From contig CAXRCZ010000007.1 in assembly GCA_964229335.1 (NCBI GenBank), positions 59,275 to 123,274 of the forward strand: a stretch of 64,000 bases of DNA, given 5' to 3'. Source of the stretch: Minisyncoccia bacterium (GTDB taxonomy: Bacteria > Patescibacteriota > Minisyncoccia > Phycocordibacterales > UBA918). Position numbers and translations under genes: made by a program. Positions 989 through 60,103 of the stretch are shown here, piece after piece. Below the pieces are notes generated by a model. The model was not told where the DNA came from. It saw nothing but the letters and a program-made list of their open reading frames with translations, and did not search any database. Position 1 is the stretch's first letter, and every line of letters starts with the position of its first letter.

Positions 989-1014
989 TACTCGTAAATT
1001 ATCAAACTTAAATA

Positions 1015-1587
1015 TTAGACACGAATAAACTCGTCAACTTCTGGGAGCGGCATAATTTCTTTACCATTCTTTACCTTACCTTCCTCAAACGGAAATACAC
1101 TTATACTTCCATCTAATTCTAGATAGGCATATTCGACCTCTCCAATATTTCTCACTCCATTCTTTCTTAGTTCGGATTCTAGTTCAGCTTCAGTAAAGTT
1201 TTCAGTTTCCAACGCATGCTGAATTATTTGCCCATTTTTTACTAACAAATTTGGCCTACTATTAATAAATTTTTCGAAAGGTGACCACTTGAGTTTTAAT
1301 CTCGAAGTACCAAACTGCAACGTAATCACTGTCATAATAATTAGTGCTGCATAAATTATTGCTACAGATGGATAAAACATTACATCTCCCACCGCTGAAC
1401 CGAGCGCTACAATTAGTAACATCTCAACTGGAGTCATTTGTTTACGCGCTTTTTTTCCTCCTGCTCTCAGAAACACTAAGGCAAAGATATAAATAACCAG
1501 AACTCTAAAAGTAATTTCTAACAAGAATACCCATTCACTTTCACCAAAAATTGTTTGTGTTAGATCAAATGTAACTACCGGATCCAT
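1015..1587 (-). CDS. DUF421 (YetF-like) membrane protein
   Basis: 190-aa ORF with N-terminal TM helices and a C-terminal soluble domain typical of DUF421. Twin of 6582-7154. Confidence 0.7.
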   Translation of the reverse strand: MDPVVTFDLTQTIFGESEWVFLLEITFRVLVIYIFALVFLRAGGKKARKQMTPVEMLLIVALGSAVGDVMFYPSVAIIYAALIIMTVITLQFGTSRLKLKWSPFEKFINSRPNLLVKNGQIIQHALETENFTEAELESELRKNGVRNIGEVEYAYLELDGSISVFPFEEGKVKNGKEIMPLPEVDEFIRV

Positions 1588-1629
1588 GAAATTTTCTAAT
1601 TAATACGTGTAACGATTACTACAATATGT

Positions 1630-2238
1630 ATGTATAGTATCTTATTTTTCTTTTTTTCGCTTACGATAGCTGCGTCTGGTTTTTTAAAATGGTATGGTTT
1701 CTTAATGGATTGGATCTATCAGTCATATTCAGATGTGCCACAAATACTGTTCTCAGTAATAGTATTTACTTCGATAGTAGTACTTTATACAAGAATCGTT
1801 GGTCTTCGAAGTTTTTCTAAAATGTCTAGCTTTGATTTTGCCATCACAGTAGCGTTTGGTTCTATACTAGCTTCTGTGGTAATCGCAAAAGAACCTAAGA
1901 TATTCCAAGCTGCAGTAGCTATGGGTGGTTTATATTTGTTTCAATACGTACTGTCATTTATAAAAGTGAGGAATAAATGGTTTGCTACCTTGATTGATAA
2001 TGAACCGATTTTACTAATGAATAATCAAGGTTTTTTAGAAGACAATTTAAAAAAAGCCCGAGTTACTAAAGATGAAGTCAGAGATAAACTACGCAAAGCT
2101 AACGTGCTTCAACTCTCAGAAGTAAGGGCTGTAGTTTTTGAAACTACTGGTGATATTTCTGTATTACACAGTACATCCGACAGAAAAATAGATAGTGAAA
2201 TTACAGCCAACGTAAGAGATAAACATTTAATTCAATAA
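1630..2238 (+). CDS. DUF421 (YetF-like) membrane protein, paralog
   Basis: 202-aa ORF with the same architecture. Twin of 5931-6539. Confidence 0.7.
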   Translation: MYSILFFFFSLTIAASGFLKWYGFLMDWIYQSYSDVPQILFSVIVFTSIVVLYTRIVGLRSFSKMSSFDFAITVAFGSILASVVIAKEPKIFQAAVAMGGLYLFQYVLSFIKVRNKWFATLIDNEPILLMNNQGFLEDNLKKARVTKDEVRDKLRKANVLQLSEVRAVVFETTGDISVLHSTSDRKIDSEITANVRDKHLIQ

Positions 2239-2272
2239 CTAGCCGTCTGGGACAATGTTGGAACTTTTTTAG

Positions 2273-2800
2273 CTAAGAAATCGGCTTAATTTCTACTCCA
2301 CTATCTTTATACTCCCGGTATTCTTCCTTGGTTTCTCTCGAATCTACTGACTTACAATAAAACACTTCGTCACCAAAAGAAGACGGTACATCCCACAGCT
2401 TATGTTTAATAACAGCTCCCCACATCCACTTAGAGAGAACGATGTCATCAGATTTCATTATTCCCCCATGAGTAATATTTTCTCCTCCGTCTTTATAGAA
2501 CACCAGATCTCCAGGTTCTGGATTATTTGTTGCTACAAGAATATTCTTACTAAATAGATGTTTTATAAATTCTTGCTGTACAGGATTGTTTCCTCCAAGG
2601 AACTCTGGATCTTGCTCAAGTCCAAAAGCGAATACGAAACAATTATAGTTTATTAAGTATGCTGGTGGTGGGGCTACTATTGTTAACTCCAAAGGAAGAC
2701 GAGATCGAATATATGCTTCAAATTCATCCGGTACCCACCACTTTCTTCCTTCTTCCTCTTCAATTAGTTCTGTGAGTTCCTCTCTGTCTTTTTTGTTCAT
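2273..2800 (-). CDS. Hypothetical protein, possible papain-like Cys/His hydrolase
   Basis: 175-aa ORF with NCFVFAFG and ITHGG motifs. Twin of 5369-5896. Function not recognised. Confidence 0.55.
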   Translation of the reverse strand: MNKKDREELTELIEEEEGRKWWVPDEFEAYIRSRLPLELTIVAPPPAYLINYNCFVFAFGLEQDPEFLGGNNPVQQEFIKHLFSKNILVATNNPEPGDLVFYKDGGENITHGGIMKSDDIVLSKWMWGAVIKHKLWDVPSSFGDEVFYCKSVDSRETKEEYREYKDSGVEIKPIS

Positions 2801-3101
2801 ATGAAGAGTATACCTTGATCAAGAAGTCGAACTAAATATAGCTGAAATATCGGTGCTAGCCGTCTGGGACAATGTTGGAACTTTTCTGGGGTTATGATAA
2901 CTTACTCACAGGAGGACACCATGCACGAACAATCAAGCTCTTACGCAATGTGTTAACAGATTCTCAACCATCCTCGGTTCAAGGACTCGGACGCTCATGA
3001 GCGTTCATCTCTCTACAATAAATTGTCAGGGATGACATTTTCTGAACTCGCTGAAGAGCGAAAGAAAATTGGTCTACTGACTTATGAAGATTAATTTGCG
3101 T

Positions 3102-3129
3102 CACCTCTTTAACAGGAGGTGGCTTTTTT
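3102..3129 (+). terminator. Rho-independent terminator-like hairpin (mirror copy at 5040-5067 on the minus strand)
   Basis: Stem cacctc / gaggtg with an 8-nt loop, followed by gctttttt. Confidence 0.5.
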
Positions 3130-3161
3130 ACGAGCTACCGGACAGGGACGATGTTGGAACT

Positions 3162-3641
3162 TTATTGGCCAGCCGCTTCTAGAGCAGCAAGTGCATATCG
3201 TTGAGTTTCTGGTCGCATTCTCTCATCTTTTTCTAACAAATCATCTAGGTCTACTCTGGTGCACCATCTGTATTCTGTATCCATACTGTCTTCTTCTTGT
3301 GGATTGATTTCTCTAGAATCAGACCGTGCTGCAAATACTAAAGAGGAGTGGTCGTGTACCTCGTTTATTTTATGACGATTCATAAACAATGGTGGGACAA
3401 GGTCTTTATTTGTTTCAGTATCTGTTTGAGTCCAATTTTTAGGACCAATCAAAGTAACTTTTAGACCTGATTCTTCCCAAGCTTCTCGTACCGCAGCTTC
3501 GTTTGCATCTTCGCCGGGATCAATATGCCCTCCTGGCGTACCCCAATAGTTGTACTTTTCATGCAACCTCAGTAGTACAGCATCTCCATTTACTATGAAG
3601 GTATCTACGCAGAGGTCTAGGTAGTAATTTATATGTGCCAT
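3162..3641 (-). CDS. NUDIX hydrolase
   Basis: Nudix box GGHIDPGEDANEAAVREAWEESGL. Twin of 4528-5007. Confidence 0.85.
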   Translation of the reverse strand: MAHINYYLDLCVDTFIVNGDAVLLRLHEKYNYWGTPGGHIDPGEDANEAAVREAWEESGLKVTLIGPKNWTQTDTETNKDLVPPLFMNRHKINEVHDHSSLVFAARSDSREINPQEEDSMDTEYRWCTRVDLDDLLEKDERMRPETQRYALAALEAAGQ

Positions 3642-3833
3642 ACATGAAAGTATAGCAAATTACTGGACAGGGACTCGGTCAGGAGTCGATTATTTTCATG
3701 AATGAAAATATATCGCTCACGACCCTGGCTCGAAACTCCAGTCCCCCAGACTGGTTTTCTCCGCCTTTCTCGTCCCAGTGCTCGGTATCCATAACGATAA
3801 ATTGCGATAGCAAATGCTATCGCAGTTTAATCG

Positions 3834-3907
3834 TGGCTACCGGACAGGGACTCGAACCCCGATCGCTTGGACCAAAACCAAGTGTCCTACCATTAGACGA
3901 TCCGGTA
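3834..3907 (-). tRNA. tRNA-Gln(TTG), mirror copy
   Basis: Exact reverse complement of 4262-4335. Confidence 0.9.
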
Positions 3908-4261
3908 AAATATTTCATTACCAACGATTTACTAACGGGAGGACGCGCAGTGTCCATACTGTCGAGCTAAGTGAGGGTCTAAAGAAAATATGTTTTCTTT
4001 AGACCGAACGTGCGCTGACAGCAAGCTTTGCTTACCATTAGACGATCCGGTAATTTTGTAAAATATAGGTACGTACTTTGGTACGTACCAAAGTACGTAC
4101 CTATATTTTACAAAATTACCGGATCGTCTAATGGTAAGCAAAGCTTGCTGTCAGCGCACGTTCGGTCTAAAGAAAACATATTTTCTTTAGACCCTCACTT
4201 AGCTCGACAGTATGGACACTGCGCGTCCTCCCGTTAGTAAATCGTTGGTAATGAAATATTT

Positions 4262-4335
4262 TACCGGATCGTCTAATGGTAGGACACTTGGTTTTGGTCC
4301 AAGCGATCGGGGTTCGAGTCCCTGTCCGGTAGCCA
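4262..4335 (+). tRNA. tRNA-Gln(TTG) with encoded CCA
   Basis: Acceptor taccgga/tccggta (U1-A72). Anticodon arm cttgg-ttTTGgt-ccaag. T arm cgggg-ttcgagt-ccctg. Discriminator g followed by cca. Confidence 0.9.
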
Positions 4336-4491
4336 CGATTAAACTGCGATAGCATTTGCTATCGCAATTTATCGTTATGGATACCGAGCACTGGGACGAG
4401 AAAGGCGGAGAAAACCAGTCTGGGGGACTGGAGTTTCGAGCCAGGGTCGTGAGCGATATATTTTCATTCATGAAAATAATCGACTCCTGAC

Positions 4492-4508
4492 CGAGTCCCT
4501 GTCCAGTA
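4492..4508 (+). repeat. R1: near-exact copy of the tRNA-Gln 3' end (mirror at 3661-3677)
   Basis: cgagtccctgtccAgta matches tRNA positions 4315-4331 cgagtccctgtccGgta at 16/17, 177 nt downstream. Confidence 0.85.
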
Positions 4509-4527
4509 ATTTGCTATACTTTCATGT

Positions 4528-5007
4528 ATGGCACATATAAATTACTACCTAGACCTCTGCGTAGATACCTTCATAGTAAATGGAGATGCTGTACTACTGA
4601 GGTTGCATGAAAAGTACAACTATTGGGGTACGCCAGGAGGGCATATTGATCCCGGCGAAGATGCAAACGAAGCTGCGGTACGAGAAGCTTGGGAAGAATC
4701 AGGTCTAAAAGTTACTTTGATTGGTCCTAAAAATTGGACTCAAACAGATACTGAAACAAATAAAGACCTTGTCCCACCATTGTTTATGAATCGTCATAAA
4801 ATAAACGAGGTACACGACCACTCCTCTTTAGTATTTGCAGCACGGTCTGATTCTAGAGAAATCAATCCACAAGAAGAAGACAGTATGGATACAGAATACA
4901 GATGGTGCACCAGAGTAGACCTAGATGATTTGTTAGAAAAAGATGAGAGAATGCGACCAGAAACTCAACGATATGCACTTGCTGCTCTAGAAGCGGCTGG
5001 CCAATAA
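4528..5007 (+). CDS. NUDIX hydrolase
   Basis: 159-aa ORF with a Nudix box. Confidence 0.85.
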   Translation: MAHINYYLDLCVDTFIVNGDAVLLRLHEKYNYWGTPGGHIDPGEDANEAAVREAWEESGLKVTLIGPKNWTQTDTETNKDLVPPLFMNRHKINEVHDHSSLVFAARSDSREINPQEEDSMDTEYRWCTRVDLDDLLEKDERMRPETQRYALAALEAAGQ

Positions 5008-5035
5008 AGTTCCAACATCGTCCCTGTCCGGTAGC
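5007..5035 (+). repeat. R2: att-like repeat aaagttccaacatcgtccctgtccggtagc (mirror at 3134-3162)
   Basis: The last 15 nt, tccctgtccggtagc, are identical to the tRNA-Gln 3' end. The first 14 nt are shared with R3 and R4. Confidence 0.85.
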
Positions 5036-5284
5036 TCGTAAAAAAGCCACCTCCTGTTAAAGAGGTGACGCAAATTAATCTTCATAAGTCAGTAGACCAA
5101 TTTTCTTTCGCTCTTCAGCGAGTTCAGAAAATGTCATCCCTGACAATTTATTGTAGAGAGATGAACGCTCATGAGCGTCCGAGTCCTTGAACCGAGGATG
5201 GTTGAGAATCTGTTAACACATTGCGTAAGAGCTTGATTGTTCGTGCATGGTGTCCTCCTGTGAGTAAGTTATCATAACCCCAGA

Positions 5285-5314
5285 AAAGTTCCAACATTGT
5301 CCCAGACGGCTAGC
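5285..5314 (+). repeat. R3: att-like repeat aaagttccaacattgtcccagacggctagc (mirror at 2855-2884)
   Basis: Direct repeat of R4, and shares 11/15 of its 3' part with R2. Confidence 0.85.
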
Positions 5315-5368
5315 ACCGATATTTCAGCTATATTTAGTTCGACTTCTTGATCAAGGTATACTCTTCAT

Positions 5369-5896
5369 ATGAACAAAAAAGACAGAGAGGAACTCACAGA
5401 ACTAATTGAAGAGGAAGAAGGAAGAAAGTGGTGGGTACCGGATGAATTTGAAGCATATATTCGATCTCGTCTTCCTTTGGAGTTAACAATAGTAGCCCCA
5501 CCACCAGCATACTTAATAAACTATAATTGTTTCGTATTCGCTTTTGGACTTGAGCAAGATCCAGAGTTCCTTGGAGGAAACAATCCTGTACAGCAAGAAT
5601 TTATAAAACATCTATTTAGTAAGAATATTCTTGTAGCAACAAATAATCCAGAACCTGGAGATCTGGTGTTCTATAAAGACGGAGGAGAAAATATTACTCA
5701 TGGGGGAATAATGAAATCTGATGACATCGTTCTCTCTAAGTGGATGTGGGGAGCTGTTATTAAACATAAGCTGTGGGATGTACCGTCTTCTTTTGGTGAC
5801 GAAGTGTTTTATTGTAAGTCAGTAGATTCGAGAGAAACCAAGGAAGAATACCGGGAGTATAAAGATAGTGGAGTAGAAATTAAGCCGATTTCTTAG
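5369..5896 (+). CDS. Hypothetical protein, possible papain-like Cys/His hydrolase
   Basis: 175-aa ORF flanked by R3 and R4. Confidence 0.55.
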   Translation: MNKKDREELTELIEEEEGRKWWVPDEFEAYIRSRLPLELTIVAPPPAYLINYNCFVFAFGLEQDPEFLGGNNPVQQEFIKHLFSKNILVATNNPEPGDLVFYKDGGENITHGGIMKSDDIVLSKWMWGAVIKHKLWDVPSSFGDEVFYCKSVDSRETKEEYREYKDSGVEIKPIS

Positions 5897-5901
5897 CTAA
5901 A

Positions 5902-5930
5902 AAAGTTCCAACATTGTCCCAGACGGCTAG
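5902..5930 (+). repeat. R4: att-like repeat aaagttccaacattgtcccagacggctag (mirror at 2239-2267)
   Basis: Identical to R3 over 29 nt. Confidence 0.85.
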
Positions 5931-6539
5931 TTATTGAATTAAATGTTTATCTCTTACGTTGGCTGTAATTTCACTATCTATTTTTCTGTCGGATGTACTG
6001 TGTAATACAGAAATATCACCAGTAGTTTCAAAAACTACAGCCCTTACTTCTGAGAGTTGAAGCACGTTAGCTTTGCGTAGTTTATCTCTGACTTCATCTT
6101 TAGTAACTCGGGCTTTTTTTAAATTGTCTTCTAAAAAACCTTGATTATTCATTAGTAAAATCGGTTCATTATCAATCAAGGTAGCAAACCATTTATTCCT
6201 CACTTTTATAAATGACAGTACGTATTGAAACAAATATAAACCACCCATAGCTACTGCAGCTTGGAATATCTTAGGTTCTTTTGCGATTACCACAGAAGCT
6301 AGTATAGAACCAAACGCTACTGTGATGGCAAAATCAAAGCTAGACATTTTAGAAAAACTTCGAAGACCAACGATTCTTGTATAAAGTACTACTATCGAAG
6401 TAAATACTATTACTGAGAACAGTATTTGTGGCACATCTGAATATGACTGATAGATCCAATCCATTAAGAAACCATACCATTTTAAAAAACCAGACGCAGC
6501 TATCGTAAGCGAAAAAAAGAAAAATAAGATACTATACAT
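5931..6539 (-). CDS. DUF421 (YetF-like) membrane protein
   Basis: 202-aa ORF. Confidence 0.7.
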   Translation of the reverse strand: MYSILFFFFSLTIAASGFLKWYGFLMDWIYQSYSDVPQILFSVIVFTSIVVLYTRIVGLRSFSKMSSFDFAITVAFGSILASVVIAKEPKIFQAAVAMGGLYLFQYVLSFIKVRNKWFATLIDNEPILLMNNQGFLEDNLKKARVTKDEVRDKLRKANVLQLSEVRAVVFETTGDISVLHSTSDRKIDSEITANVRDKHLIQ

Positions 6540-6581
6540 ACATATTGTAGTAATCGTTACACGTATTAATTAGAAAATTTC

Positions 6582-7154
6582 ATGGATCCGGTAGTTACAT
6601 TTGATCTAACACAAACAATTTTTGGTGAAAGTGAATGGGTATTCTTGTTAGAAATTACTTTTAGAGTTCTGGTTATTTATATCTTTGCCTTAGTGTTTCT
6701 GAGAGCAGGAGGAAAAAAAGCGCGTAAACAAATGACTCCAGTTGAGATGTTACTAATTGTAGCGCTCGGTTCAGCGGTGGGAGATGTAATGTTTTATCCA
6801 TCTGTAGCAATAATTTATGCAGCACTAATTATTATGACAGTGATTACGTTGCAGTTTGGTACTTCGAGATTAAAACTCAAGTGGTCACCTTTCGAAAAAT
6901 TTATTAATAGTAGGCCAAATTTGTTAGTAAAAAATGGGCAAATAATTCAGCATGCGTTGGAAACTGAAAACTTTACTGAAGCTGAACTAGAATCCGAACT
7001 AAGAAAGAATGGAGTGAGAAATATTGGAGAGGTCGAATATGCCTATCTAGAATTAGATGGAAGTATAAGTGTATTTCCGTTTGAGGAAGGTAAGGTAAAG
7101 AATGGTAAAGAAATTATGCCGCTCCCAGAAGTTGACGAGTTTATTCGTGTCTAA
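6582..7154 (+). CDS. DUF421 (YetF-like) membrane protein
   Basis: 190-aa ORF. Confidence 0.7.
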   Translation: MDPVVTFDLTQTIFGESEWVFLLEITFRVLVIYIFALVFLRAGGKKARKQMTPVEMLLIVALGSAVGDVMFYPSVAIIYAALIIMTVITLQFGTSRLKLKWSPFEKFINSRPNLLVKNGQIIQHALETENFTEAELESELRKNGVRNIGEVEYAYLELDGSISVFPFEEGKVKNGKEIMPLPEVDEFIRV

Positions 7155-7180
7155 TATTTAAGTTTGATAATTTACGAGTA

Positions 7181-8311
7181 ATGTCTACAGCACTTCCGCG
7201 TTACGAATACAGTCGATTAATAATACAGCGACGACTACAAGAACTAACTAGTCTAGAAGCTCCATTTGGCTTGACGACTCGCTACGCCGTTAAAGCCAAT
7301 CCACATCCAGAAATAATAAAACTCATTGATACTGCAGGTGTTGAGTTTGATGCCAGTTCAAGTTATGAAGCAGATGAGTTATTAGAAATGGGTATCGAGG
7401 GTAATAAGATTTCGCTATCTTCACAGCAGTCAACTCCTAATCTTGCTGAATTACTTGAGCAAGGAGTGCTCTATGTGGCCACCTCGATGCGACAACTGAG
7501 AGATTTTATTGCCGCCGCCAATCATCCTGATACTGTTGGGATACGGATTAATATTGATATGGGGGTGGGGCATAACAAGCGCACCAGTACCGGGGGAGCA
7601 ACCTCAGCGTTTGGACTTTGGTACGAATATATTCCCGAAGCTCTAGCACTAGCCAAAGAAAATGATGTGATCATTGATCGCCTACATATCCATGTTGGGT
7701 CAGGTTCAGATCCCAAAGTGTGGGGAGAGGTGATGGATCGGTCGCTTTCGATTGCCACGCAATTACCCGATGTCATCGCGCTCGATATCGGAGGTGGTTT
7801 CAAAGTGCATCGATATGATACTGAGAAAGAGGCTGATATGTCGGTAATAATGGAGCTCTTTTCTAGCAAGTTAGAGAACTTTGCAGCTGAAACTGGCAGA
7901 GAGTTACGGCTTGAAATTGAACCTGGTACGTACCTGATTGCGCATGCCGGCACCTTGGTAGCAACTGTCGACGATATTGTCGATACTGGAGCCGACGGCT
8001 TCACTTTTCTGCGAATCAATACTGGTATGAATGATTTTTTGCGTACAGCTATGTACGGCGCTCAACATAAAATCGAGGTGATAAATAATGATGATGAAAC
8101 TAAAGAATACATTGTGGTAGGACACAACTGCGAGTCGGGTGATATTTTCACCCCTACTCCCGGTGACCCAGAAGAAATCGAACCGAGAATGTTAAATAAA
8201 GCAGAGATTGGCGACGAGATACGTATTTATGATGTTGGTGCGTATGGCGCAAGTATGCGAGCCAAGGGCTACAACTCGTTTCCAGACGCTGTTGAGGTGA
8301 TAGTCGATTAG
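7181..8311 (+). CDS. PLP-dependent group IV decarboxylase (LysA / Orn / Arg / carboxynorspermidine decarboxylase family)
   Basis: Motifs YAVKANP (PLP lysine), HIHVGSGS, DIGGGF, EPGTYL, GHNCESGD, GAYGASM. Confidence 0.8.
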   Translation: MSTALPRYEYSRLIIQRRLQELTSLEAPFGLTTRYAVKANPHPEIIKLIDTAGVEFDASSSYEADELLEMGIEGNKISLSSQQSTPNLAELLEQGVLYVATSMRQLRDFIAAANHPDTVGIRINIDMGVGHNKRTSTGGATSAFGLWYEYIPEALALAKENDVIIDRLHIHVGSGSDPKVWGEVMDRSLSIATQLPDVIALDIGGGFKVHRYDTEKEADMSVIMELFSSKLENFAAETGRELRLEIEPGTYLIAHAGTLVATVDDIVDTGADGFTFLRINTGMNDFLRTAMYGAQHKIEVINNDDETKEYIVVGHNCESGDIFTPTPGDPEEIEPRMLNKAEIGDEIRIYDVGAYGASMRAKGYNSFPDAVEVIVD

Positions 8312-23701: not shown

Positions 23702-23806
23702 CTGCGCCTCCAATTTTTAGGGTGCTATAAACTATCTAAATAATACACTAAAATAACGAACTGTCAAGTAATATTGCTAAATCACATTAGTTTCTTATCT
23801 AAAAGA

Positions 23807-23819
23807 AGGAGCAGACTCG
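23807..23819 (-). repeat. Copy of the tRNA-Phe 3' part (cgagtctgcTcct), distal boundary of the tRNA-Phe island
   Basis: 12/13 identity to cgagtctgcCcct in tRNA-Phe, in the same orientation. Abuts ttagtaactcgtgac. Confidence 0.6.
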
Positions 23820-24277
23820 GTCACGAGTTACTAAGTATATTTGTTCGTGATGCTCAAAATATTGCTTAGGGACATTGACTCGTCCTGGCGGTCACAAGGC
23901 TGAATTGAGTATCAAGATACTCAATTCAGCAAGTGCCGCGGGACACGCCTCGCTCGTTTTCAGCTCCAGGTAATGAGCTGAAAACATCGTTCCGGCGTTC
24001 GAGTCTGCACGCAAGCAAAGCAGTTTGCTTGCTCCCTGAGCAGTCAAAACCCCGCCAAGGGCGGGGTTTCTTTGTGCAGATGCACGGGACAATTCTCGAA
24101 CTTTTGATCTGAGAGTCCTTCACTCTATCAAGCAACTCGAACCACTCCAAAACGCAAACGACGACTCTGTTGAGCCGCCGATTGCTGATGTCGCGTAAGA
24201 GCGACTCTCTCAGCGCGACCGTACATAAAAACCCTCGATGCACGAATGCATCGAGGGTCTGCGGTAGCTAGCAATAG

Positions 24278-24772
24278 CTACTTGGGATTACGAACGAACA
24301 TCCAAGAAACGTTGCTGTCCCACCTGCGGTCGGGGTGACCGTTACGAGCGTAGATCCAGCGCCCGAAGTCGTCGCATACCACGCGGAACACGTTACGATC
24401 GCCTCCCGAGTCCACGATGGTTTCCATTGCCACAAGCGACCATTCGCCACGGGGCAACAGATCGTGGTCATGTAGCCAAAGCTGCGGGGCCGCTTCGGCA
24501 GGGCAGAGCGAGAGGTTGTGACTTTCGGCAGCAGCGTAAATCTGCGCTGTGGTCGCACCGTCTTCCAGTCCCAGCTCTTTGACCAACACCCGAACCAGGT
24601 CGAGCGGAGTTTCCGTATCCTCGAAGGTAGCCCGTTCGAGAATATCGTCACCCCAGTCGCCGATCCTGATGCCAGCATCTTCGAGGCGTTTGCGAGCTTC
24701 TTGAGCGCTTCCGAGATTCCCGACCGTGACTGTTTTCCAGGTCGGGAAGGTCGATTGTGTTGCAGTCTTCAT
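24278..24772 (-). CDS. Hypothetical protein, high-GC cargo of the tRNA-Phe island
   Basis: gggag RBS before the ATG. 164 aa. A spot count of one 60-nt line gave about 60% GC, against about 42% in a lepA line. Confidence 0.65.
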   Translation of the reverse strand: MKTATQSTFPTWKTVTVGNLGSAQEARKRLEDAGIRIGDWGDDILERATFEDTETPLDLVRVLVKELGLEDGATTAQIYAAAESHNLSLCPAEAAPQLWLHDHDLLPRGEWSLVAMETIVDSGGDRNVFRVVCDDFGRWIYARNGHPDRRWDSNVSWMFVRNPK

Positions 24773-24909
24773 TGAACATCTCCCGAGCCAGCTTCCGCCA
24801 GCTCATTTTGAGTGGCGGGTGGTTAACCCAGGAAAAACCTACCTGAATTCAATCACATATCGTGAATCTGTCAACTTGTGCCGTGACTCAGGAGAGCTAT
24901 CTTATTCTG

Positions 24910-25059
24910 ATGACTCACGACGAATGGCTGGAAGAATACATCGATATTTGCGCCACAATCTTCATACGACTGCAGCGAGAAGGACGACTGGAAGAGGTTC
25001 TGTCGACATATGAGAAGACTCGAACTGAGAAAGTCTTAGAAACCAACGATATTTCATGA
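24910..25059 (+). CDS. Small hypothetical protein
   Basis: aggagag RBS upstream of the ATG at 24910. 49 aa, followed by a terminator at 25104-25129. Confidence 0.3.
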   Translation: MTHDEWLEEYIDICATIFIRLQREGRLEEVLSTYEKTRTEKVLETNDIS

Positions 25060-25156
25060 CTTGAGAATCTGACTAAGATTTCTCGAAAGCTTGGAATACA
25101 AAAATACCGCTCAGGTGAGCGGTATTTTTGTGAGGCAGAAAAGCCGTCTCTTTTTG

Positions 25157-25230
25157 TGCTCAGGGGCAGACTCGAACTGCCGACACCTGGTTCTTCAGAC
25201 CAGTGCTCTAACCAACTGAGCTACCTGAGC
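25157..25230 (-). tRNA. tRNA-Phe(GAA)
   Basis: Acceptor gctcagg/cctgagc. Anticodon loop ctGAAga. T arm ggcag-ttcgagt-ctgcc. Confidence 0.92.
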
Positions 25231-25730: not shown

Positions 25731-25893
25731 ATCAGCCGCCCTGAACACGAACGCGTTCAGGGCGTTGCTGTTGGTAGTACACTACTAGGAATCGAAAGAC
25801 GGAGCTGGTACACAAGACGAGCGTAGCGAGGGCTTGTCAGCGAGTCCGGGGAGGAAGTTCTTAACGAACGAAGTGAGTTTAGAAACTTGACCC

Positions 25894-25912
25894 CGATTCC
25901 TAGTAAGGATAC
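25894..25912 (+). repeat. Copy of the tRNA-Arg 3' end
   Basis: cgattcctagtAaggaTac vs tRNA 25710-25728 cgattcctagtGaggaCac (17/19), 184 nt downstream. Confidence 0.85.
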
Positions 25913-38900: not shown

Positions 38901-39016
38901 TAATTTCTTACTCGTAAGGTGTCCACCATCATACCAGAGTAGGGCAATCTAATGAAGAAACCACCTAGTAGTCTAGATGGTTTCTGTTGGGAAGATAAAT
39001 TGTAGTTTTTAGAACG

Positions 39017-39150
39017 CTGGTACCGGTCACAAGTTACTAAGTGTTTTCACTAACTTCGTTAGTTGCGAGCACTAAGTACTCGCGACCCCAGCTCGCTTCT
39101 CGTCGCTGCGGGATAGAGCCGCTCCTCACATCGCTGCGCTTGGCGGTACC
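39017..39150 (-). repeat. Solo copy of the tRNA-linked element family, between ftsZ and trxB, bounded by ggtacc
   Basis: The plus strand carries gtcacaagttactaa (39026-39040), cttcgtt, ctaagtactcgcgaccccagctcgct (39072-39097) and gagccgctcctc. These blocks occur in the same order as at the tRNA loci. Confidence 0.65.
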
Positions 39151-39151
39151 C

Positions 39152-40381
39152 TTATTTCAGCTTACTTCGTCGCAGAAATGCGGGTACCGCCCCCCAATCG
39201 TCCTCTTCATCAGAGTCTTCACTCGCGTCGACTGGTTTTGGTTCACGTTTGGGAATTTCTGGACGTGAAGACTGATTAGTGTTTGCTGCTGGAGCTGGTG
39301 TTTCCTCAGCTTTCTTTGGTAGAGAGTTAAATATCTTTCCTTTGGTTGGTGTAATCTCTATATCTTCATCATCCTCTTGAATCGGAGCTCGGCGAGAGAT
39401 ATGCATGCCACCGGTGTTGAGAGTTTCGTCAGGGAAACCAGTAGCGATAACGGTGACTTTGATTTCATTCTTCTTCAACTTCTCGTCACGAATTGCTCCG
39501 AAGATAACTTTTGCTTGAGAATCAATTGATTCAGTGATTACCCGTGCCGCGTCTTGGATTTCGAGCATACCAAGATCATCTCCACCAGCGATGGCGAATA
39601 GAACACCTTTCGCTCCAGTAATCGAAACTTCCAATAGGGGAGAGTTAATAGCGTCTCGAGAAGCTTCCTCAGCACGCTTGTCGCCAGAAGAAATACCTAC
39701 ACCCATCAAGGCTGAGCCGGCATTTTCCATTACGCTGCGGATGTCAGCGAAGTCGACATTGATGATACCTGGCATGGTAATCAGGTCAGAGATACCTTCT
39801 ACCGCTTGACGTAGAACGTTGTCACACTGCTCAAACGCGTTTTTAACAGTGGTCTCCTTGTCTACAATTGCTAGCAAGCGATCGTTAGGGATGGTGATGA
39901 GTGCATCAACCTCTTTCTTCAGTTCTTCGATTCCTTGCAAAGCAAGACGCATACGCTCTTGGCCTTCAAATAAGAATGGTTTAGTCACTACACCAACAGT
40001 GAGAGCACCACTTTCACGAGCGATTTTAGCTACGACGGGAGCAGATCCGGTACCGGTACCTCCACCCATTCCTCCAGTGATGAAGATCATATCTGATCCT
40101 TTGATGGCGTTGGCGATTTCTTCTCGAGTTTCTTCAGCAGCGCGGCGACCCATGTCAGGGTTACCACCAGCTCCTAGACCGCGGGTGAGGTTCTTACCGA
40201 TGTGAATTTTTTTCTTAGCTAGCGAGTGATGTAAGTCTTGGGCGTCACTGTTTACTGCAATAAATTCCACTCCTTTAACTTTTGAGTTCACCATGTGGTT
40301 CACGGCGTTCTTTCCAGAGCCGCCGACACCAACGACTCTTATACGTGCAAATGACTCTACGTCTGATTTAATTTGTTCCAT
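39152..40381 (-). CDS. ftsZ: Cell division protein FtsZ
   Basis: [11 protein letters not shown] tubulin signature and NTD...GxxGxG start. Confidence 0.95.
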
Positions 40382-57810: not shown

Positions 57811-58842
57811 GTGAACAAAAAATCTCGAGATTTGCGTAGCCGTGAAGACAAAAGAAAGGCGGCTGCAGAAGATACCCGACCTAGACGAACGATTTCGTTC
57901 TACCGTTATGTGCAGATTGATAATCCGGAAGCTTTTCGAGAGCGATTATTAGACAAATGGCAGGAGCTTGAATGTCTAGGACGAATATATGTAGCCAAAG
58001 AGGGAATCAACGCCCAAATGAACGTACTAGAAAAGAAGTGGGATGAGTTCAATACTTGGACACAAACCCAGCCAGAACTAGCTGGTGTACCGTACAAAGT
58101 TGCGGTGGAAGAAGGCCAAGCGCCATCGTTCTATAAATTGGCTATCAAGCTGCGTGACAAAATTGTGGCTGATGGACTAGATGATAGTAGTTTCGATGTG
58201 ACTGATACTGGCGACTATCTGACTGCTGAGGAGATGAATCAATATCTTGATGATCCAGATGCGGTAGTGGTAGATATGCGAAATAGCTACGAGAGCGAAG
58301 TAGGGCATTTTGATGGGGCGATTACTCCGAAGGTAGAAACCTTTCGCGAAGAATTAAAGAAAACACCAGAATTATTAAAGGAACACAAAGATAAAAAAAT
58401 TGCTTTGTACTGTACTGGGGGTATTCGTTGTGAAAAAGCCAGTGCATGGCTCAAGCATAGTGGCTACAAAGATGTGCGACACCTCAAAGGCGGGATTATT
58501 GACTATGCGCACCAGGTAAAAGAGAAGCAATTACCGAATAAGTTTAAAGGTAAGAACTTTGTATTTGATGAGCGGCTTGGGGAACGAGTCGGCGAGGAAA
58601 TCATTGCCACTTGTCACCTGTGTCGCAAAGTCAAGAGTGACACTCACTACCACTGCCGAAACCAAATTTGCCACACATTATTTATTGGTTGTGATGAGTG
58701 TGTTGAGAATAAGCGTGGGTACTGCGGCAAAGTGTGTGAACTGATTGACAAACTACCCAAGCCTCTAAAAAAGAAAGCAGCGCGGTTTTACAATACTGTC
58801 GTCCGGGGACGTAAACAGTTTAAGAAAACTCGGCTGGTGTAA
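57811..58842 (+). CDS. trhO: tRNA uridine(34) hydroxylase TrhO (rhodanese-domain UPF0176/YceA)
   Basis: FYRYV...EGINAQM and the rhodanese loop YCTGGIRCEKA. C-terminal Cys cluster. Confidence 0.85.
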   Translation: MNKKSRDLRSREDKRKAAAEDTRPRRTISFYRYVQIDNPEAFRERLLDKWQELECLGRIYVAKEGINAQMNVLEKKWDEFNTWTQTQPELAGVPYKVAVEEGQAPSFYKLAIKLRDKIVADGLDDSSFDVTDTGDYLTAEEMNQYLDDPDAVVVDMRNSYESEVGHFDGAITPKVETFREELKKTPELLKEHKDKKIALYCTGGIRCEKASAWLKHSGYKDVRHLKGGIIDYAHQVKEKQLPNKFKGKNFVFDERLGERVGEEIIATCHLCRKVKSDTHYHCRNQICHTLFIGCDECVENKRGYCGKVCELIDKLPKPLKKKAARFYNTVVRGRKQFKKTRLV

Positions 58843-58887
58843 ACAAAATCCCTGCTTTAATACTAGTATTAAAGCAGGGATTTTTTG

Positions 58888-58968
58888 TGCGTGAGAGAGG
58901 ACTCGAACCTCCACGGATTGCTCCACTAGTTCCTAAGACTAGCGCGTCTACCATTTCGCCACTCACGC
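58888..58968 (-). tRNA. tRNA-Leu(TAG)
   Basis: Acceptor gcgtgag/ctcacgc. Anticodon loop ctTAGga. Long variable arm. T arm ggagg-ttcgagt-cctct. Confidence 0.9.
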
Positions 58969-59071
58969 GTAAATGTGGCGCTGAGTATAGCAAACAATTA
59001 GTACCAGTGCCAGTTGAAAATACGCTTGAACTATCGATATCACTGAGGTACACTCAGGCGCACCAACTATT

Positions 59072-59144
59072 CCGCCCATAGCTCAGTTGGTAGAGCAGGT
59101 GGCTCTTAACCACAAGGTCCTAGGTTCAAGTCCTAGTGGGCGGA
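59072..59144 (+). tRNA. tRNA-Lys(CTT)
   Basis: Acceptor ccgccca/tgggcgg (C1-G72). Anticodon loop ctCTTaa. T arm ctagg-ttcaagt-cctag. Confidence 0.85.
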
Positions 59145-59340
59145 CAACGTTAAGAAAAACTGTGCCTGCGCACAGTTTTTTAGTTGTCCGAGGCGGAGCT
59201 ATGTTTTTTCTCTTAACCTTGAGAAAAAGCCAGCGAGCCGGGGTCGCGAGTACTTAGCAAAATTTTTGCGAAGCGAATATTTTGGTTAGTAACTGGTGAC
59301 GTCAACGTAAAGAAAAACTGCCCAACGGCAGTTTTTCTAT
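59145..59340 (+). repeat. tRNA-linked element copy downstream of tRNA-Lys, bracketed by a duplicated flank-plus-terminator
   Basis: caacgttaagaaaaactg + hairpin at 59145-59182 recurs as caacgtaaagaaaaactg + hairpin at 59304-59340. The interior has cgaggcggag, agcgagccggggtcgcgagtacttag (59232-59257), gcgaag and ttagtaactggtgac (59286-59300). Confidence 0.7.
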
Positions 59341-59428
59341 TGGTGCCGGGAGCGGGACTCGAACCCGCACGCCCTGTAAGAGGCAAGGGATTTTAAGTCC
59401 CTCGTGTCTACCATTCCACCATCCCGGC
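59341..59428 (-). tRNA. tRNA-Leu(TAA) with encoded CCA
   Basis: Acceptor gccggga/tcccggc. Anticodon loop ctTAAaa. Long variable arm. T arm gcggg-ttcgagt-cccgc. Confidence 0.9.
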
Positions 59429-59451
59429 ATGCACTATCGAACAATGTTTTG

Positions 59452-59474
59452 TTCGTGAGTCCTGGGCGGGAATC
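59452..59474 (-). repeat. Exact 23-nt copy of the tRNA-Cys 3' end plus flank
   Basis: ttcgtgagtcctgggcgggaatc is identical at 59452-59474 and 59631-59653. Confidence 0.9.
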
Positions 59475-59636
59475 TTCCCACAGTTACTAATTCGTTACAC
59501 TCATAAGTACTGCTAGACGCGGCTCAACCGTTTCAATTTCTAGGAATGGAAATTGAACCATGTCTCCGCCGTTCGATTCCAGAAAGATTGTGCGCAGGCA
59601 CAATCTACCCATGCCTACGAAAACTTAGTTTTCGTG

Positions 59637-59708
59637 AGTCCTGGGCGGGAATCGAACCCGCGCATGGAGGTTTTGCAGACCTCAGCGTTACCACTTCGCC
59701 ACCAGGAC
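59637..59708 (-). tRNA. tRNA-Cys(GCA)
   Basis: Acceptor gtcctgg/ccaggac. Anticodon arm gaggt-ctGCAaa-acctc. T arm gcggg-ttcgatt-cccgc. Confidence 0.9.
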
Positions 59709-59767
59709 AGTAATAATTCGCTCCGTACTTTAGCATTTATATAATGCGGTGACAAAGCACAAACTAA

Positions 59768-60103
59768 CTAATCCTCACTCTCAAGTTGGCGAAAGACATC
59801 ATCTATATGTTGACGGTGCCGTTCACCAGCATCAATCATGAAGTCGAAGTGAGGAATTCTTTTTATCTTAGTGTGGCTTTTTAGATATTGCCGCATATCT
59901 CCACCCGAACGCTTCAAAAAAATAAGCGCTTCATTCTCCTTACCGTCAGGCAAGGTTGTGAAGAAAACTATTGCACGTTTCAAGTCAGGCGAAATATCAA
60001 TCCGTGTAATAGTAATTAACGGATCAGCATTGGCTTCTTGCTGTACAAACTTGGCTACGTTCTCCTGTAGCAAATGTGCTACTTTAGCTTGTCTTTCAGA
60101 CAT
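59768..60103 (-). CDS. rbfA: Ribosome-binding factor A
   Basis: 111 aa, directly downstream of infB. V..LL...V..F KH-like pattern. Confidence 0.8.
   Translation of the reverse strand: MSERQAKVAHLLQENVAKFVQQEANADPLITITRIDISPDLKRAIVFFTTLPDGKENEALIFLKRSGGDMRQYLKSHTKIKRIPHFDFMIDAGERHRQHIDDVFRQLESED

Follow-up and report, generated by a model that had tools for sequence, protein, structure and literature searches.

The evidence leans towards the interval downstream of tRNA-Cys in this 64-kb stretch of a Patescibacteria (Paceibacteria) chromosome (hereafter the window, i.e., the whole stretch that was analysed) being one copy of a family of small, non-coding and non-autonomous insertion elements located at the 3′ ends of highly conserved genes, the direct repeat around it being a junction duplication. 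The gene ends occupied by such elements are mostly those of tRNAs, and the tRNA is left intact. The tRNA-Cys element belongs to what is apparently an undescribed and widespread family of strongly folded insertion elements of about 150 bases in these ultra-small bacteria. Patescibacteria genomes are streamlined (~1 Mb) and thought to be poor in mobile DNA, and here about one in five of the tRNA genes that were sampled near infB has a structured insert of 100–200 nt. Such a family would bring a new motif of RNA (or single-stranded DNA), strongly covarying and missing from Rfam; a new route by which a non-coding element enters essential genes without breaking them; and possibly a connection between the ends of tRNA genes and small GIY-YIG nucleases. 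In practice, assemblies of these genomes may break up at repeated tRNA 3′ ends, and the annotation of their tRNAs and att sites could be led astray.

The tRNA-Cys locus and other copies in the window

A preliminary description of this DNA, made from the sequence, had reported an exact 23-nt repeat with a 179-nt offset at the tRNA-Cys gene. Indeed, the window contains TTCGTGAGTCCTGGGCGGGAATC at exactly two places, 59452–59474 and 59631–59653 (+ strand), with that very offset, and 100 dinucleotide-preserving shuffles gave no match to it, even with three mismatches permitted. The tRNA-Cys(GCA) gene lies on the minus strand at 59636–59708 (ARAGORN) or 59637–59708 (Rfam), and the repeat therefore spans the tRNA 3′ end from G57 of the T loop together with 5–6 nt of trailer, in agreement with the content first proposed for it; the last 17–18 nt of the gene are themselves the proximal copy of the repeat. 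The two copies are separated by 156 nt with no ORF inside, and since tRNA-Leu is co-oriented and starts 23 nt past the distal repeat, the element forms a spacer inside a tRNA cluster. The interior blocks listed in the preliminary description (in tRNA direction, the hairpin gattgtgcctgcgcacaatc, then ctggaatcgaacggcggagac, gagccgcgtctagcagtacttat, aacgaa and ttagtaactgtggga) are all there in the order given, and the tRNA-Arg copy shares this order. The element follows the plan X-X′-core-X, that is, the tRNA 3′ end, a trailer hairpin, an inverted copy of the 3′ end, a three-way-junction core and the direct repeat, as follows.

59636..59708, minus strand: tRNA-Cys (GCA), intact (ARAGORN; Rfam tRNA, 64.7 bits)
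59631..59653, minus strand: proximal repeat copy X1 (T-loop G57, acceptor 3′ strand, discriminator, then trailer CACGAA)
59617..59635, minus strand: element-borne trailer hairpin ACGAAAAC-TAA-GTTTTCGT (sequence and comparison with relatives)
59608..59616, minus strand: inverted acceptor 3′ strand, decayed, AGGCATGGG against the perfect complement AGTCCTGGG, 7/9 match (read from the sequence)
59586..59605, minus strand: small conserved hairpin GATTGTGCCTGCGCACAATC, between the anti-acceptor and anti-T segments
59572..59582, minus strand: inverted T loop and T stem (CTGGAATCGAA), 5′ strand of helix P0
59475..59571, minus strand: three-way-junction core in five parts (covariance-model alignment, 30.4 bits; family covariation)
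59568–59570 (GGC) paired with 59521–59523 (GCC), minus strand: core helix P1
within the core: tandem G·A internal loop, GGAG / GA
59526–59563, minus strand: variable hairpin P2 of the core
within the core: joiner GCG
59476–59517, minus strand: long hairpin P3 of the core
59452..59474, minus strand: distal repeat copy X2, 3′ strand of P0, probably the displaced original tRNA-Cys 3′ end (repeat search; covariance model; comparison with element-free relatives)
59438..59455, minus strand: hairpin CGAACAA-AACA-TTGTTCG past the distal repeat, presumed ancestral tRNA-Cys trailer (sequence and relatives)
59341..59428, minus strand: tRNA-Leu (TAA), same orientation as tRNA-Cys (ARAGORN)

The ancestral-trailer reading of the hairpin at 59438..59455 is proposed because its organisation resembles that of trailer hairpins in element-free relatives. 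The element-borne trailer hairpin is kept in the filled alleles of two relatives (L083 and L086) and is unlike the trailers at element-free sites. Moreover, the small hairpin GATTGTGCCTGCGCACAATC has 14 nt in common with the tRNA-Lys copy, and the inverted-acceptor module is intact in other family copies. Note that the earlier reading of the sequence overlooked that the element contains the tRNA 3′ end in inverted form, as well as the evidence for a strand-specific single-stranded fold and the ancestral-trailer look of the distal repeat and its hairpin. In silico, an element-free junction at tRNA-Cys would read ...GCGCGGGTTC GATTCCCGCCCAGGACTCACGAA CAAAACATTGTTCG.

The repeat is extremely improbable as a chance match or as an assembly artefact of the tRNA cluster. 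The window does hold one probable assembly artefact, a perfect 4084-nt palindrome at positions 1–8168, and a Logan contig of the same organism ends at the last base of tRNA-Cys (which is uninformative on the empty allele); however, besides the lack of shuffle matches, only 23 nt are duplicated and not the 179-nt unit, and homologous elements stand behind the same tRNA-Cys in independent assemblies of related organisms (L083, L086 and L008), so that an assembly artefact is unlikely as the source of the repeat. The perfect identity of the two copies had also been taken as the mark of a comparatively recent event, which is plausible on indirect evidence. Among relatives with the same tRNA-Cys 3′ end, two that share the 5′ module of the element show decayed distal repeats (~2 mismatches in the tRNA part in L086 and at least 6 in L083), and a perfect repeat therefore speaks for an insertion, a replacement or a gene conversion of recent date. 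On the other side, the nearest sampled core is only ~67% identical to the tRNA-Cys core, and copies of one genome resemble each other hardly more than copies of different genomes (0.55 versus 0.52), which counts against a recent jump inside this genome.

That the repeat brackets a copy of an element, as had been claimed, was borne out by the same architecture and covarying core elsewhere in the window and in dozens of related genomes. A covariance model derived from further copies scored 58.6 bits at the tRNA-Arg copy (25784–25905) and 30.4 bits at the tRNA-Cys interval (59464–59584, minus strand; E = 4e-6 over 1.24 Mb). The other copies in the window are listed below.

59146..59325, plus strand: copy behind tRNA-Lys, with the repeat CAACGT(T/A)AAGAAAAACTG beginning at the discriminator (covariance model)
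25731..25911, plus strand: copy behind tRNA-Arg, distal repeat decayed (covariance model)
4336..4512, plus strand: copy behind tRNA-Gln (covariance model)
3657–3833, minus strand: mirror image of the tRNA-Gln copy, present because of the 8.2-kb palindrome
23871..24010, minus strand: tRNA-Phe-specific copy (anti-acceptor and anti-T segments), now 1.1 kb from tRNA-Phe
39013..39137, minus strand: copy just 3′ of ftsZ, with the X-X′-core-X plan made from codons of the FtsZ C-terminal peptide

An ORF-bearing 1.1-kb insertion separates tRNA-Phe from its element. In the ftsZ copy, the codons of the C-terminal peptide are duplicated, eleven residues (letters not shown) being retained upstream and VPAF* downstream.

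Family survey and the covarying core

The survey covered the tRNA genes near infB in 80+ related loci. A copy of at least 11 nt of the gene's own 3′ end was found downstream of 62 of 303 tRNAs versus upstream of 6, and when neighbouring tRNAs were excluded, 61 of 315 tRNAs had such a copy downstream, ~165 nt away. The repeats are 19–23 nt long, at times up to 68 nt, and their starts peak at C56 of the T loop (20/57) and their ends 1–3 nt past the discriminator, within elements of ~90–300 nt whose median repeat spacing is 165 nt. Across many tRNA types, the element also carries the 3′ end of its local tRNA in inverted form, and X1, the trailer hairpin and X′ often make up one long near-perfect palindrome (L077, L043, L022, L005, L048 and L064). 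A second tRNA gene copy was ruled out as the origin of X′, since its T-loop part is clearly antisense (e.g., AATCGAA for the loop TTCGATT) and since X′ runs on into the complement of the trailer. Tandem arrays of elements occur (L019, L058, L009, L052 and L002), as does a mirror-image class at tRNA 5′ ends. The covariance model recovered 62 cores in 1.24 Mb, 52 of which begin within 100 nt 3′ of a tRNA on the same strand; these matches sit behind the tRNAs for Cys, Leu (three anticodons), Lys, Tyr, Trp, Gln, Arg and Asp, in addition to the displaced Phe-linked copy and ftsZ. Mean identity of copies is 0.55 within a genome versus 0.52 between genomes, and the Gln core of the window is 80% identical to the Leu-TAA copy of L083. 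A literature search found no account of structured elements linked to tRNA 3′ ends in Patescibacteria, and a paper on rRNA-gene insertions in these bacteria does not mention tRNA.

The core combines a GNC/GN′C helix, a tandem G·A loop and a conserved G·U pair. With 20 aligned sequences, 89.6% of the cells were paired and the covariation score was 0.488 versus 0.176 when shuffled; none of 500 shuffles reached 0.488, and slid controls gave ~0.1. The 61 distinct model matches gave 92.1% paired cells, compensatory changes in 26 of 27 pairs and a score of 0.648 versus 0.189, the G·U pair being kept in 48 of these sequences. X′ and X2 form helix P0 on the tRNA-sense strand; this helix clamps the core and displays compensatory changes in all seven of its pairs, and the tRNA-sense strand gives the more stable fold in 50 of 55 copies (p = 5e-10). 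The folded molecule may be RNA or single-stranded DNA. Two results tell against the favoured reading: for the tRNA-Cys copy alone, the minimum-free-energy fold reaches a z-score of no more than −3.1, which is modest, and recovers P0 inexactly; and the fit of X′ is somewhat closer to the real tRNA than to X2 (45 versus 5, in a test confounded by the 5′ half of the T loop), so that the pairing partner is uncertain. Among the curated covariance models of Rfam 15, which include self-cleaving ribozymes, omega and HEARO RNAs and tRNA-like RNAs, tRNAs alone reached the gathering score over the whole window, and permissive searches gave nothing credible at E ≤ 10 over 58800–59800 nor at E ≤ 1 over nine element-rich loci; a known ribozyme or guide RNA was accordingly rejected as the identity of the core.

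The strong covariation of the core, its conserved G·U pair and unpaired nucleotides, and the strand-biased fold would also suit a family of small RNA genes that resides beside tRNA genes and benefits the host, which we consider unlikely. According to this explanation, X′-X2 pairing builds a mimic of the ‘top half’ of a tRNA, in which the acceptor stem stacks on the T stem and a hairpin replaces the D and anticodon arms, as compared with known tRNA-like structures (the tRNA-like domain of tmRNA, mascRNA and viral tRNA-like ends), which have such a stack with a free 3′ end that is processed or charged in the way of a tRNA; RNase P, 3′ trimming and CCA addition would release a stable RNA of ~130–150 nt from the tRNA operon transcript, the three-way-junction core would have a cellular role (e.g., protein binding or catalysis), and the repeat would reflect the need for a tRNA-like 3′ end and not an insertion. 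In many copies, the ‘AG-hairpin-CGT’ module between the acceptor and T-stem complements does occupy the topological place of the remaining tRNA, and the repeat, from C56 to the discriminator plus 1–3 nt, corresponds to the segment relevant to 3′ processing; the position between co-oriented tRNAs with no predicted terminator, as well as the age and divergence of the copies, also point this way. However, in the tRNA-Cys copy, in which the anti-acceptor segment matches at only 7/9 positions, the T loop that processing enzymes recognise is paired away in P0, and a generic tRNA-like end needs neither a match to the neighbouring tRNA nor lineage-specific trailer bases, while the copy made from ftsZ codons lacks a tRNA-like end altogether. 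The explanation further sits poorly with the patchy presence per orthologous tRNA, with core types that differ at the same tRNA in close relatives, with tandem arrays, and with the decay of distal repeats and cores in some lineages (L083 and L086) and in the Arg and Gln copies of the window.

Turnover, gene-end replacement and mobility

Element occupancy per orthologous tRNA is patchy, ranging from 8 to 36% in well-sampled types. Relatives that share the tRNA-Cys 3′ end followed by CACGAA are element-free in some cases (L082/L084 and L085), carry a type-A core with the same 5′ module in another (L083), or retain a remnant (L086); the present tRNA-Cys copy has a type-C core. This patchiness suggests that the elements move. 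A metagenome scan for a precise empty allele returned element-free related taxa, but no filled/empty pair from one species, which weakens the favoured model.

In the favoured model, recombination inside the stretch bounded by the T loop and the 3′ end, either Campbell-like or as a homing-like gene-end replacement, would introduce an element that supplies its own replacement 3′ end and trailer. The original 3′ end of the gene would be displaced downstream and become X2, and the 23-nt repeat would thus be a junction duplication, analogous to attL/attR. The element would then be transcribed as the spacer of a tRNA-Cys/tRNA-Leu transcript; in favour of co-transcription, predictions over 58800–59800 placed a promoter-like site only upstream of tRNA-Cys on the same strand (59755–59727) and no terminator-like site, and the next tRNA is co-oriented. 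Selection would act on the folded form, as RNA or single-stranded DNA, and the mobilising enzyme would act in trans, a small GIY-YIG nuclease being one candidate. Indeed, GIY-YIG ORFs of related genomes occupy the same slot with the same repeat geometry: as an example, one (PF01541) lies between tRNA-Gly and a 20-nt repeat starting at C56 (L059), and two (PF01541) lie at duplicated tRNA 5′ ends (L078). These GIY-YIG-bearing insertions have no inverted copy and no core-model match. Against the favoured model stand the within-genome identity of copies of only ~55%, with no recent bursts as in typical MITEs, and the scan of ~47 of the 72 window ORFs with Pfam or NCBIfam, which gave housekeeping genes or no match and no recombinase, transposase, reverse transcriptase or nuclease gene. 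The 164-aa ORF between tRNA-Phe and its element belongs to a small hypothetical-protein family with no Pfam domain and with unrelated contexts. The homing guide of a Cas12k CRISPR-associated transposon, a cyanobacterial system, was rejected as an identity for the element, given the Patescibacteria host and no cas or tns genes among the scanned ORFs.

Elements that integrate at tRNA genes are classically recognised by direct repeats covering the tRNA from its T loop to its 3′ end, and islands are known to accrete in tandem at tRNAs. The tRNA-Cys repeat, the tandem copies and the ORF-bearing 1.1-kb insertion at tRNA-Phe could thus be remnants of integrase-mediated genomic islands or prophages, comparable to the cis-mobilisable elements that internal deletion leaves behind, with the repeats as attL/attR and the interior as leftover ends of a larger element. 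We regard this origin as very improbable, since a single integrase specificity would not yield one ~100-nt covarying core at many tRNAs and at ftsZ, and since repeated independent deletions would not leave a conserved, compensating three-way junction. Moreover, no integrase was found in the 64-kb window (~47/72 ORFs scanned), and the strict type-A pattern had no match in 2.9 million viral contigs.

Gene-end replacement alone does not account for shared core types being found between sense and antisense copies of numerous different tRNAs and of ftsZ. An alternative, quite unlikely in our assessment, is a self-retargeting nucleic-acid-guided mobile element whose X′ and X read both target strands, in the manner of IS110 bridge RNAs, tandem-spacer tigRNAs or folded single-stranded attP/attC sites. 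With every move X′ would be copied anew from the next target, e.g., by snap-back synthesis or a template switch, for which the trailer hairpin and the near-palindromic T loop would offer the sites, and the same cores could then settle at any conserved gene end. Several observations fit this proposal: X′ and X always match the local gene, at ftsZ and at no fewer than 10 tRNA types with different T stems; P0 is fully compensatory (7/7); X1, trailer hairpin and X′ form the near-perfect palindromes cited above; similar cores stand at different tRNAs in related genomes, such as the window Gln and L083 Leu-TAA copies; and the mirror-image class exists at tRNA 5′ ends. In addition, the order X...X′-spacer-X is the product of folded single-stranded hairpin site integration in CTX-type phages. 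However, no partner protein was identified among the scanned ORFs, simple snap-back synthesis does not account for the conserved hairpin within X′, none of the guide-RNA families in Rfam gives a match, and TIGR arrays look entirely different (PMC12045711). Re-templating of the sense and antisense target copies with every move, if it occurs, would amount to a new principle by which targets are recognised, relevant to genome engineering. A further proposal, which we hold to be doubtful, is a mobile element free of protein genes, with a folded strand of ~100 nt as its only ‘gene’, which would find conserved gene ends by means of paired sense and antisense target copies and would be self-programmed by template switching on each new target; a small GIY-YIG nuclease or host repair might be its mobiliser, and such units would fill about one fifth of the sampled tRNA genes near infB throughout a class of ultra-small bacteria.

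Comparison with known systems

The tRNA-Cys element resembles tRNA-integrating islands, prophages and their cis-mobilisable derivatives in its direct repeat from the T loop to the 3′ end with a few trailer bases, in the intact tRNA and displaced original end, in tandem arrays, and in a presence that varies among relatives. Flanking repeats of the tRNA 3′ segment that restore the tRNA, as in integrase elements, are found at 23 of 23 nt. Unlike these systems, the element is only ~150 nt long, has no integrase inside or found nearby, and contains an inverted target copy and a covarying three-way-junction core; one tRNA target per family is expected of integrase elements, whereas the same core occurs here at many tRNAs and a protein gene.

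MITE-like palindromic repeats include Correia elements, REP/BIME and Rickettsia palindromic elements, which likewise are small, non-coding, hairpin-forming, non-autonomous and co-transcribed with their neighbours. In contrast to MITEs, the inverted repeats of the present family are copied from the target and vary with the site instead of being fixed termini, the duplication of 19–23 nt is defined by the gene end rather than being a short target-site duplication of constant size, the copies are ~55% identical and not near-identical and numerous within each genome, and no cognate transposase was found among the scanned ORFs. Folded single-stranded recombination substrates are known from the CTX-phage attP hairpin used by XerCD and from integron attC. 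Such sites are recognised by XerCD or IntI at dif-like or R′/L′ boxes. They share with the family the order of target copy, inverted copy, spacer and target copy, and a strand-specific fold with conserved mismatches and bulges; the differences are that the target is not dif or attI and that the spacer is a conserved three-way junction.

The omega RNA of TnpB/IscB, the IS110 bridge RNA and tigRNA are similar in having a structured scaffold flanked by segments of both strands of the local target, and guide-RNA scaffolds also share the tandem G·A (k-turn-like) motif. They differ from the element, which has no adjacent effector gene and no Rfam match, and whose target-matching segments are 12–25 nt long and mutually paired. 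TIGR-Tas systems occur in Patescibacteria, and their arrays consist of alternating edge and loop repeats of 8–12 nt and 9-nt spacers beside a Nop-domain gene (PMC12045711); a TIGR-Tas identity was rejected, as this array architecture is absent from the sequence and no Nop-domain ORF was found among the scanned ORFs.

Finally, free-standing homing-endonuclease insertions that duplicate the end of their host gene are represented by GIY-YIG ORFs in fungal mitochondrial genes and by T4 SegB in a tRNA cluster (PMC2330249). The tRNA-Cys copy differs from them by having no endonuclease ORF, or any other ORF, between the duplicated ends, and the GIY-YIG-bearing insertions of relatives differ from the family by having no inverted copy. 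The likeness lies in the duplicated host-gene end, in the highly conserved target sequences and in the gene that remains functional, the upstream copy of the gene end being the working one both at the intact tRNA-Cys (64.7 bits) and at ftsZ; moreover, the GIY-YIG ORFs located in the same slot of related Patescibacteria (L059 and L078) provide candidate nucleases.

The repeat at tRNA-Cys and the anatomy of a copy

The preliminary description had reported a 23-nt direct repeat at the tRNA-Cys 3′ end and had suggested a comparatively recent event. The repeat is confirmed as an exact pair: TTCGTGAGTCCTGGGCGGGAATC occurs twice in the window, at 59452-59474 and 59631-59653, and no match was obtained in 100 shuffles with up to 3 mismatches permitted. 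Read in the tRNA direction it is GATTCCCGCCCAGGACT-CACGAA, extending from T-loop G57 to the discriminator, with 5–6 nt of trailer. Decay of distal repeats is documented in relatives, which makes a recent event plausible; the perfect repeat could equally reflect a recent 3′-half replacement or gene conversion as a recent insertion. Note that L001 (7185-7256), a Logan contig (SRR28144605) whose IF-2 is identical to that of the window, stops at the last tRNA-Cys base, 5–6 nt short of the repeat end; either a graph branch, from strain variation after the tRNA, or low coverage may be the cause.

Features of the Cys copy
59636-59708 (Rfam: 59637-59708), minus strand: tRNA-Cys(GCA)
59617-59635: trailer hairpin
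59608-59616: anti-acceptor remnant (7/9 match)
59586-59605: small hairpin
59572-59582: anti-T segment
59475-59571: core
59452-59474: distal repeat

In the tRNA direction, copies follow the plan X - X′ - core - X, where X is the gene 3′ end (X1 proximal, X2 distal) and X′ its inverted copy. The 5′ part runs from the tRNA through a short trailer, usually with a hairpin, to the inverted acceptor 3′ strand, which often extends this hairpin into a long palindrome that takes in the real tRNA end; the 3′ part comprises the inverted T stem and T loop (e.g., GAGGGATTCGAA), the core and the direct repeat. Between the acceptor-strand and T-stem complements, many copies carry a conserved ‘AG-hairpin-CGT’ module. 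That the antisense copy belongs to a self-retargeting guided element, being re-templated from each target, appears unlikely to us. Several core types exist in the family: types A and C both have a 3-bp helix (GNC/GN′C) and a GGA/GA internal loop, then two hairpins, the variable P2 and the long P3, separated by a short, G-rich joiner; in type B the joiner is different (GTACTG) and comes with a short hairpin whose loop is GTA. In the window, the Cys core is of type C and the Lys, Gln and Arg cores are of type A. In the tRNA-Lys copy (59145-59340), as in Lys copies elsewhere, the repeat begins at the discriminator/trailer and not in the T loop; its small hairpin, preceded by an A run and followed by a T run, resembles a bidirectional terminator.

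Extent and turnover of the family

The neighbouring genes in the window encode a short IF-2, RbfA, a NifS-like desulfurase and TrhO, each of which gives weak scores with bacterial models. Using the window IF-2, 80 loci were retrieved, every one of them from a Patescibacteria MAG with the label Kaiser-, Nomura- or Paceibacteria (best IF-2 match 76% identical), which places the window on a Paceibacteria chromosome. In these loci and the window taken together, 62 of 303 tRNAs are followed 60–400 nt downstream by an exact repeat (≥11 nt) of their own 3′ end; the upstream control gave 6. With neighbouring tRNAs removed the count is 61/315; an artefact is hardly credible. Repeat starts peak at C56 (20/57) and repeat ends 1–3 nt past the discriminator, with a median spacing of 165 nt, and copies occur at tRNAs for Leu (three anticodons), Tyr, Cys, Lys, Trp, Met, Gln, Arg, Asp and Phe. 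No description of these elements was found in the literature searched, and no Rfam family matches them in the window or, at permissive E-values, at the locus and nine element-rich loci.

When metagenomes were scanned for the tRNA-Cys 3′ end followed by CACGAA, five contigs from related taxa were recovered. The related contigs L082/L084 and L085 are without the element, their tRNA being followed by a trailer hairpin beginning CGAA. L083 shares the 5′ module of the window (trailer hairpin ACGAAAAY...RTTTTCGT, anti-acceptor, small hairpin, anti-T) and differs in its type-A 3′ half and decayed distal repeat; L086 retains a short remnant with a decayed repeat. After the distal repeat of the window come CACGAA and the hairpin CGAACAA...TTGTTCG, arranged like the element-free trailers, so that, judging from this order, the distal side looks ancestral and the proximal repeat with its hairpin looks element-borne.

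Occupancy of orthologous tRNAs is 8–36% for well-sampled types. Tandem arrays (tRNA - element - repeat - element - repeat), often with different cores, occur in the related loci L019 (12189-12520), L058 (4800-5300 and 5325-5740), L009, L052 and L002. Copies are scarcely more alike within a genome (0.55) than between genomes (0.52), and the closest relative of a copy usually lies in another genome, sometimes at another tRNA; the Gln core of the window, for one, shares 80% identity with the Leu-TAA copy of L083.

A strand-specific structure under selection

The element structure is under selection. Indeed, in 20 aligned type-A copies, standard pairs reach 89.6% against 72.4% in shuffles (0/500 as high), and the covariation score is 0.488 against 0.176 when shuffled and ~0.1 in slid controls. 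A covariance model built from this alignment, searched over 1.24 Mb at E up to 0.1, gave 62 matches, 52 of which begin no more than 100 nt 3′ of a tRNA on the same strand. For the 61 distinct matches, in an alignment fitted to the model, 92.1% of cells are paired, compensatory changes occur in 26 of 27 pairs, the score is 0.648 against 0.189, and 48 retain a G·U pair near the junction. The Cys copy scores 30.4 bits, with both P0, the helix of X′ with X2 (UGGAAUC with GAUUCC), and P1 (GGC with GCC) present; its single-sequence fold is only moderately unusual (z = -3.1).

In whole-element folds, the tRNA-sense strand is the more stable in 50 of 55 copies (by 7.6 kcal/mol on average, p = 5e-10), which argues that the conserved unit is a strand-specific single-stranded form, RNA or single-stranded DNA, between which sequence does not discriminate. 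At many loci, GNA triloops and GCGAAGC or GCGTAGC motifs abound at the hairpin tips, and a GACG loop recurs in minimal P2 hairpins. GCGAAGC forms an unusually stable mini-hairpin in single-stranded DNA, and tips of this type thus keep the single-stranded-DNA reading open. A promoter-like site is predicted upstream of tRNA-Cys and none between it and the element, the interval 58800-59800 has no predicted terminator-like site, and tRNA-Leu(TAA) follows on the same strand 23 nt after the distal repeat; the element would be a transcribed spacer within a tRNA operon. That it is a resident small RNA, linked to tRNA genes and carrying a mimic of the tRNA top half, seems doubtful.

Targets beyond tRNA 3′ ends, candidate partners and known systems

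ftsZ copy, 5′ class and GIY-YIG ORFs
39013-39195, minus strand (model match 39013-39137): type-A copy directly 3′ of ftsZ
4117-4261 (mirror 3908-4052): 5′-class element upstream of tRNA-Gln
L059 7686-8100: single-domain GIY-YIG ORF, related locus
L078 11346-11833 and 14944-15452: two such ORFs, related locus

At ftsZ, X1 (GGCGGTACCC) lies inside the codons of the conserved C-terminal peptide and is followed by X′ (GGGTACCGCC, an inverted 10-mer), the core and X2 (CGGTACCAGCGTTCTAA), which translates as VPAF*; the peptide codons are duplicated, with an 11-residue peptide upstream and VPAF* downstream. Thus, the target is defined by the 3′ end of conserved genes in general and not by the tRNA as such. 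Altogether, we lean towards a non-autonomous element that replaces gene 3′ ends, in which the folded single strand would be the selected unit and the 23-nt repeat a junction duplication.

For a mirror-image class at tRNA 5′ ends, the count was 30 candidates, with 11 in the control; some of the candidates are simply neighbouring Leu tRNAs. At tRNA-Gln, an exact 20-nt duplicate of the tRNA 5′ end is followed by hairpins, a decayed antisense copy and the intact tRNA, and similar cases were seen in L084, L086, L003, L011, L042 and other loci. Positions 1-8168 form a perfect palindrome (arms 1-4084 and 4085-8168, 100% complementary, no spacer) that contains tRNA-Gln, its element and several genes twice, once as a mirror image; a fold-back chimera at a contig end is the probable cause, a real hairpin end being less likely. 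In 23800-25160 (minus), modules specific to tRNA-Phe (anti-acceptor, small hairpin, anti-T, core, decayed repeat and a second partial element) lie 1.1 kb from that gene. The intervening segment has a short flanking GCACAAA repeat and a 164-aa ORF (24278-24772) from a small hypothetical-protein family without Pfam domain, one homologue of which adjoins a diversity-generating retroelement (Avd and reverse transcriptase).

Among the ~47 of 72 window ORFs scanned, none was recognised as a recombinase, transposase, reverse transcriptase or nuclease; that the copies are remnants of integrase-mediated islands we consider quite improbable. The related loci contain three small GIY-YIG ORFs (PF01541, 87–90 aa), all of them at duplicated tRNA ends. 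The L059 ORF lies between tRNA-Gly and a 20-nt repeat of its 3′ end beginning at C56, in the same geometry as the Cys copy, and each L078 ORF lies between a 5′ pseudo-copy, with inserted hairpins, and the intact tRNA, at the 5′ ends of tRNA-Leu and tRNA-Gly. These ORFs are candidate partners, a lead and not a demonstration.

Among known systems, TIGR-Tas, known from these bacteria, has a different architecture. The closest kinds are islands that integrate at tRNA genes, homing-endonuclease insertions with duplication of a gene end and MITE-like palindromic repeats, from each of which the element departs in at least one defining feature, together with folded single-stranded att sites, to which it may be likened in repeat order only.
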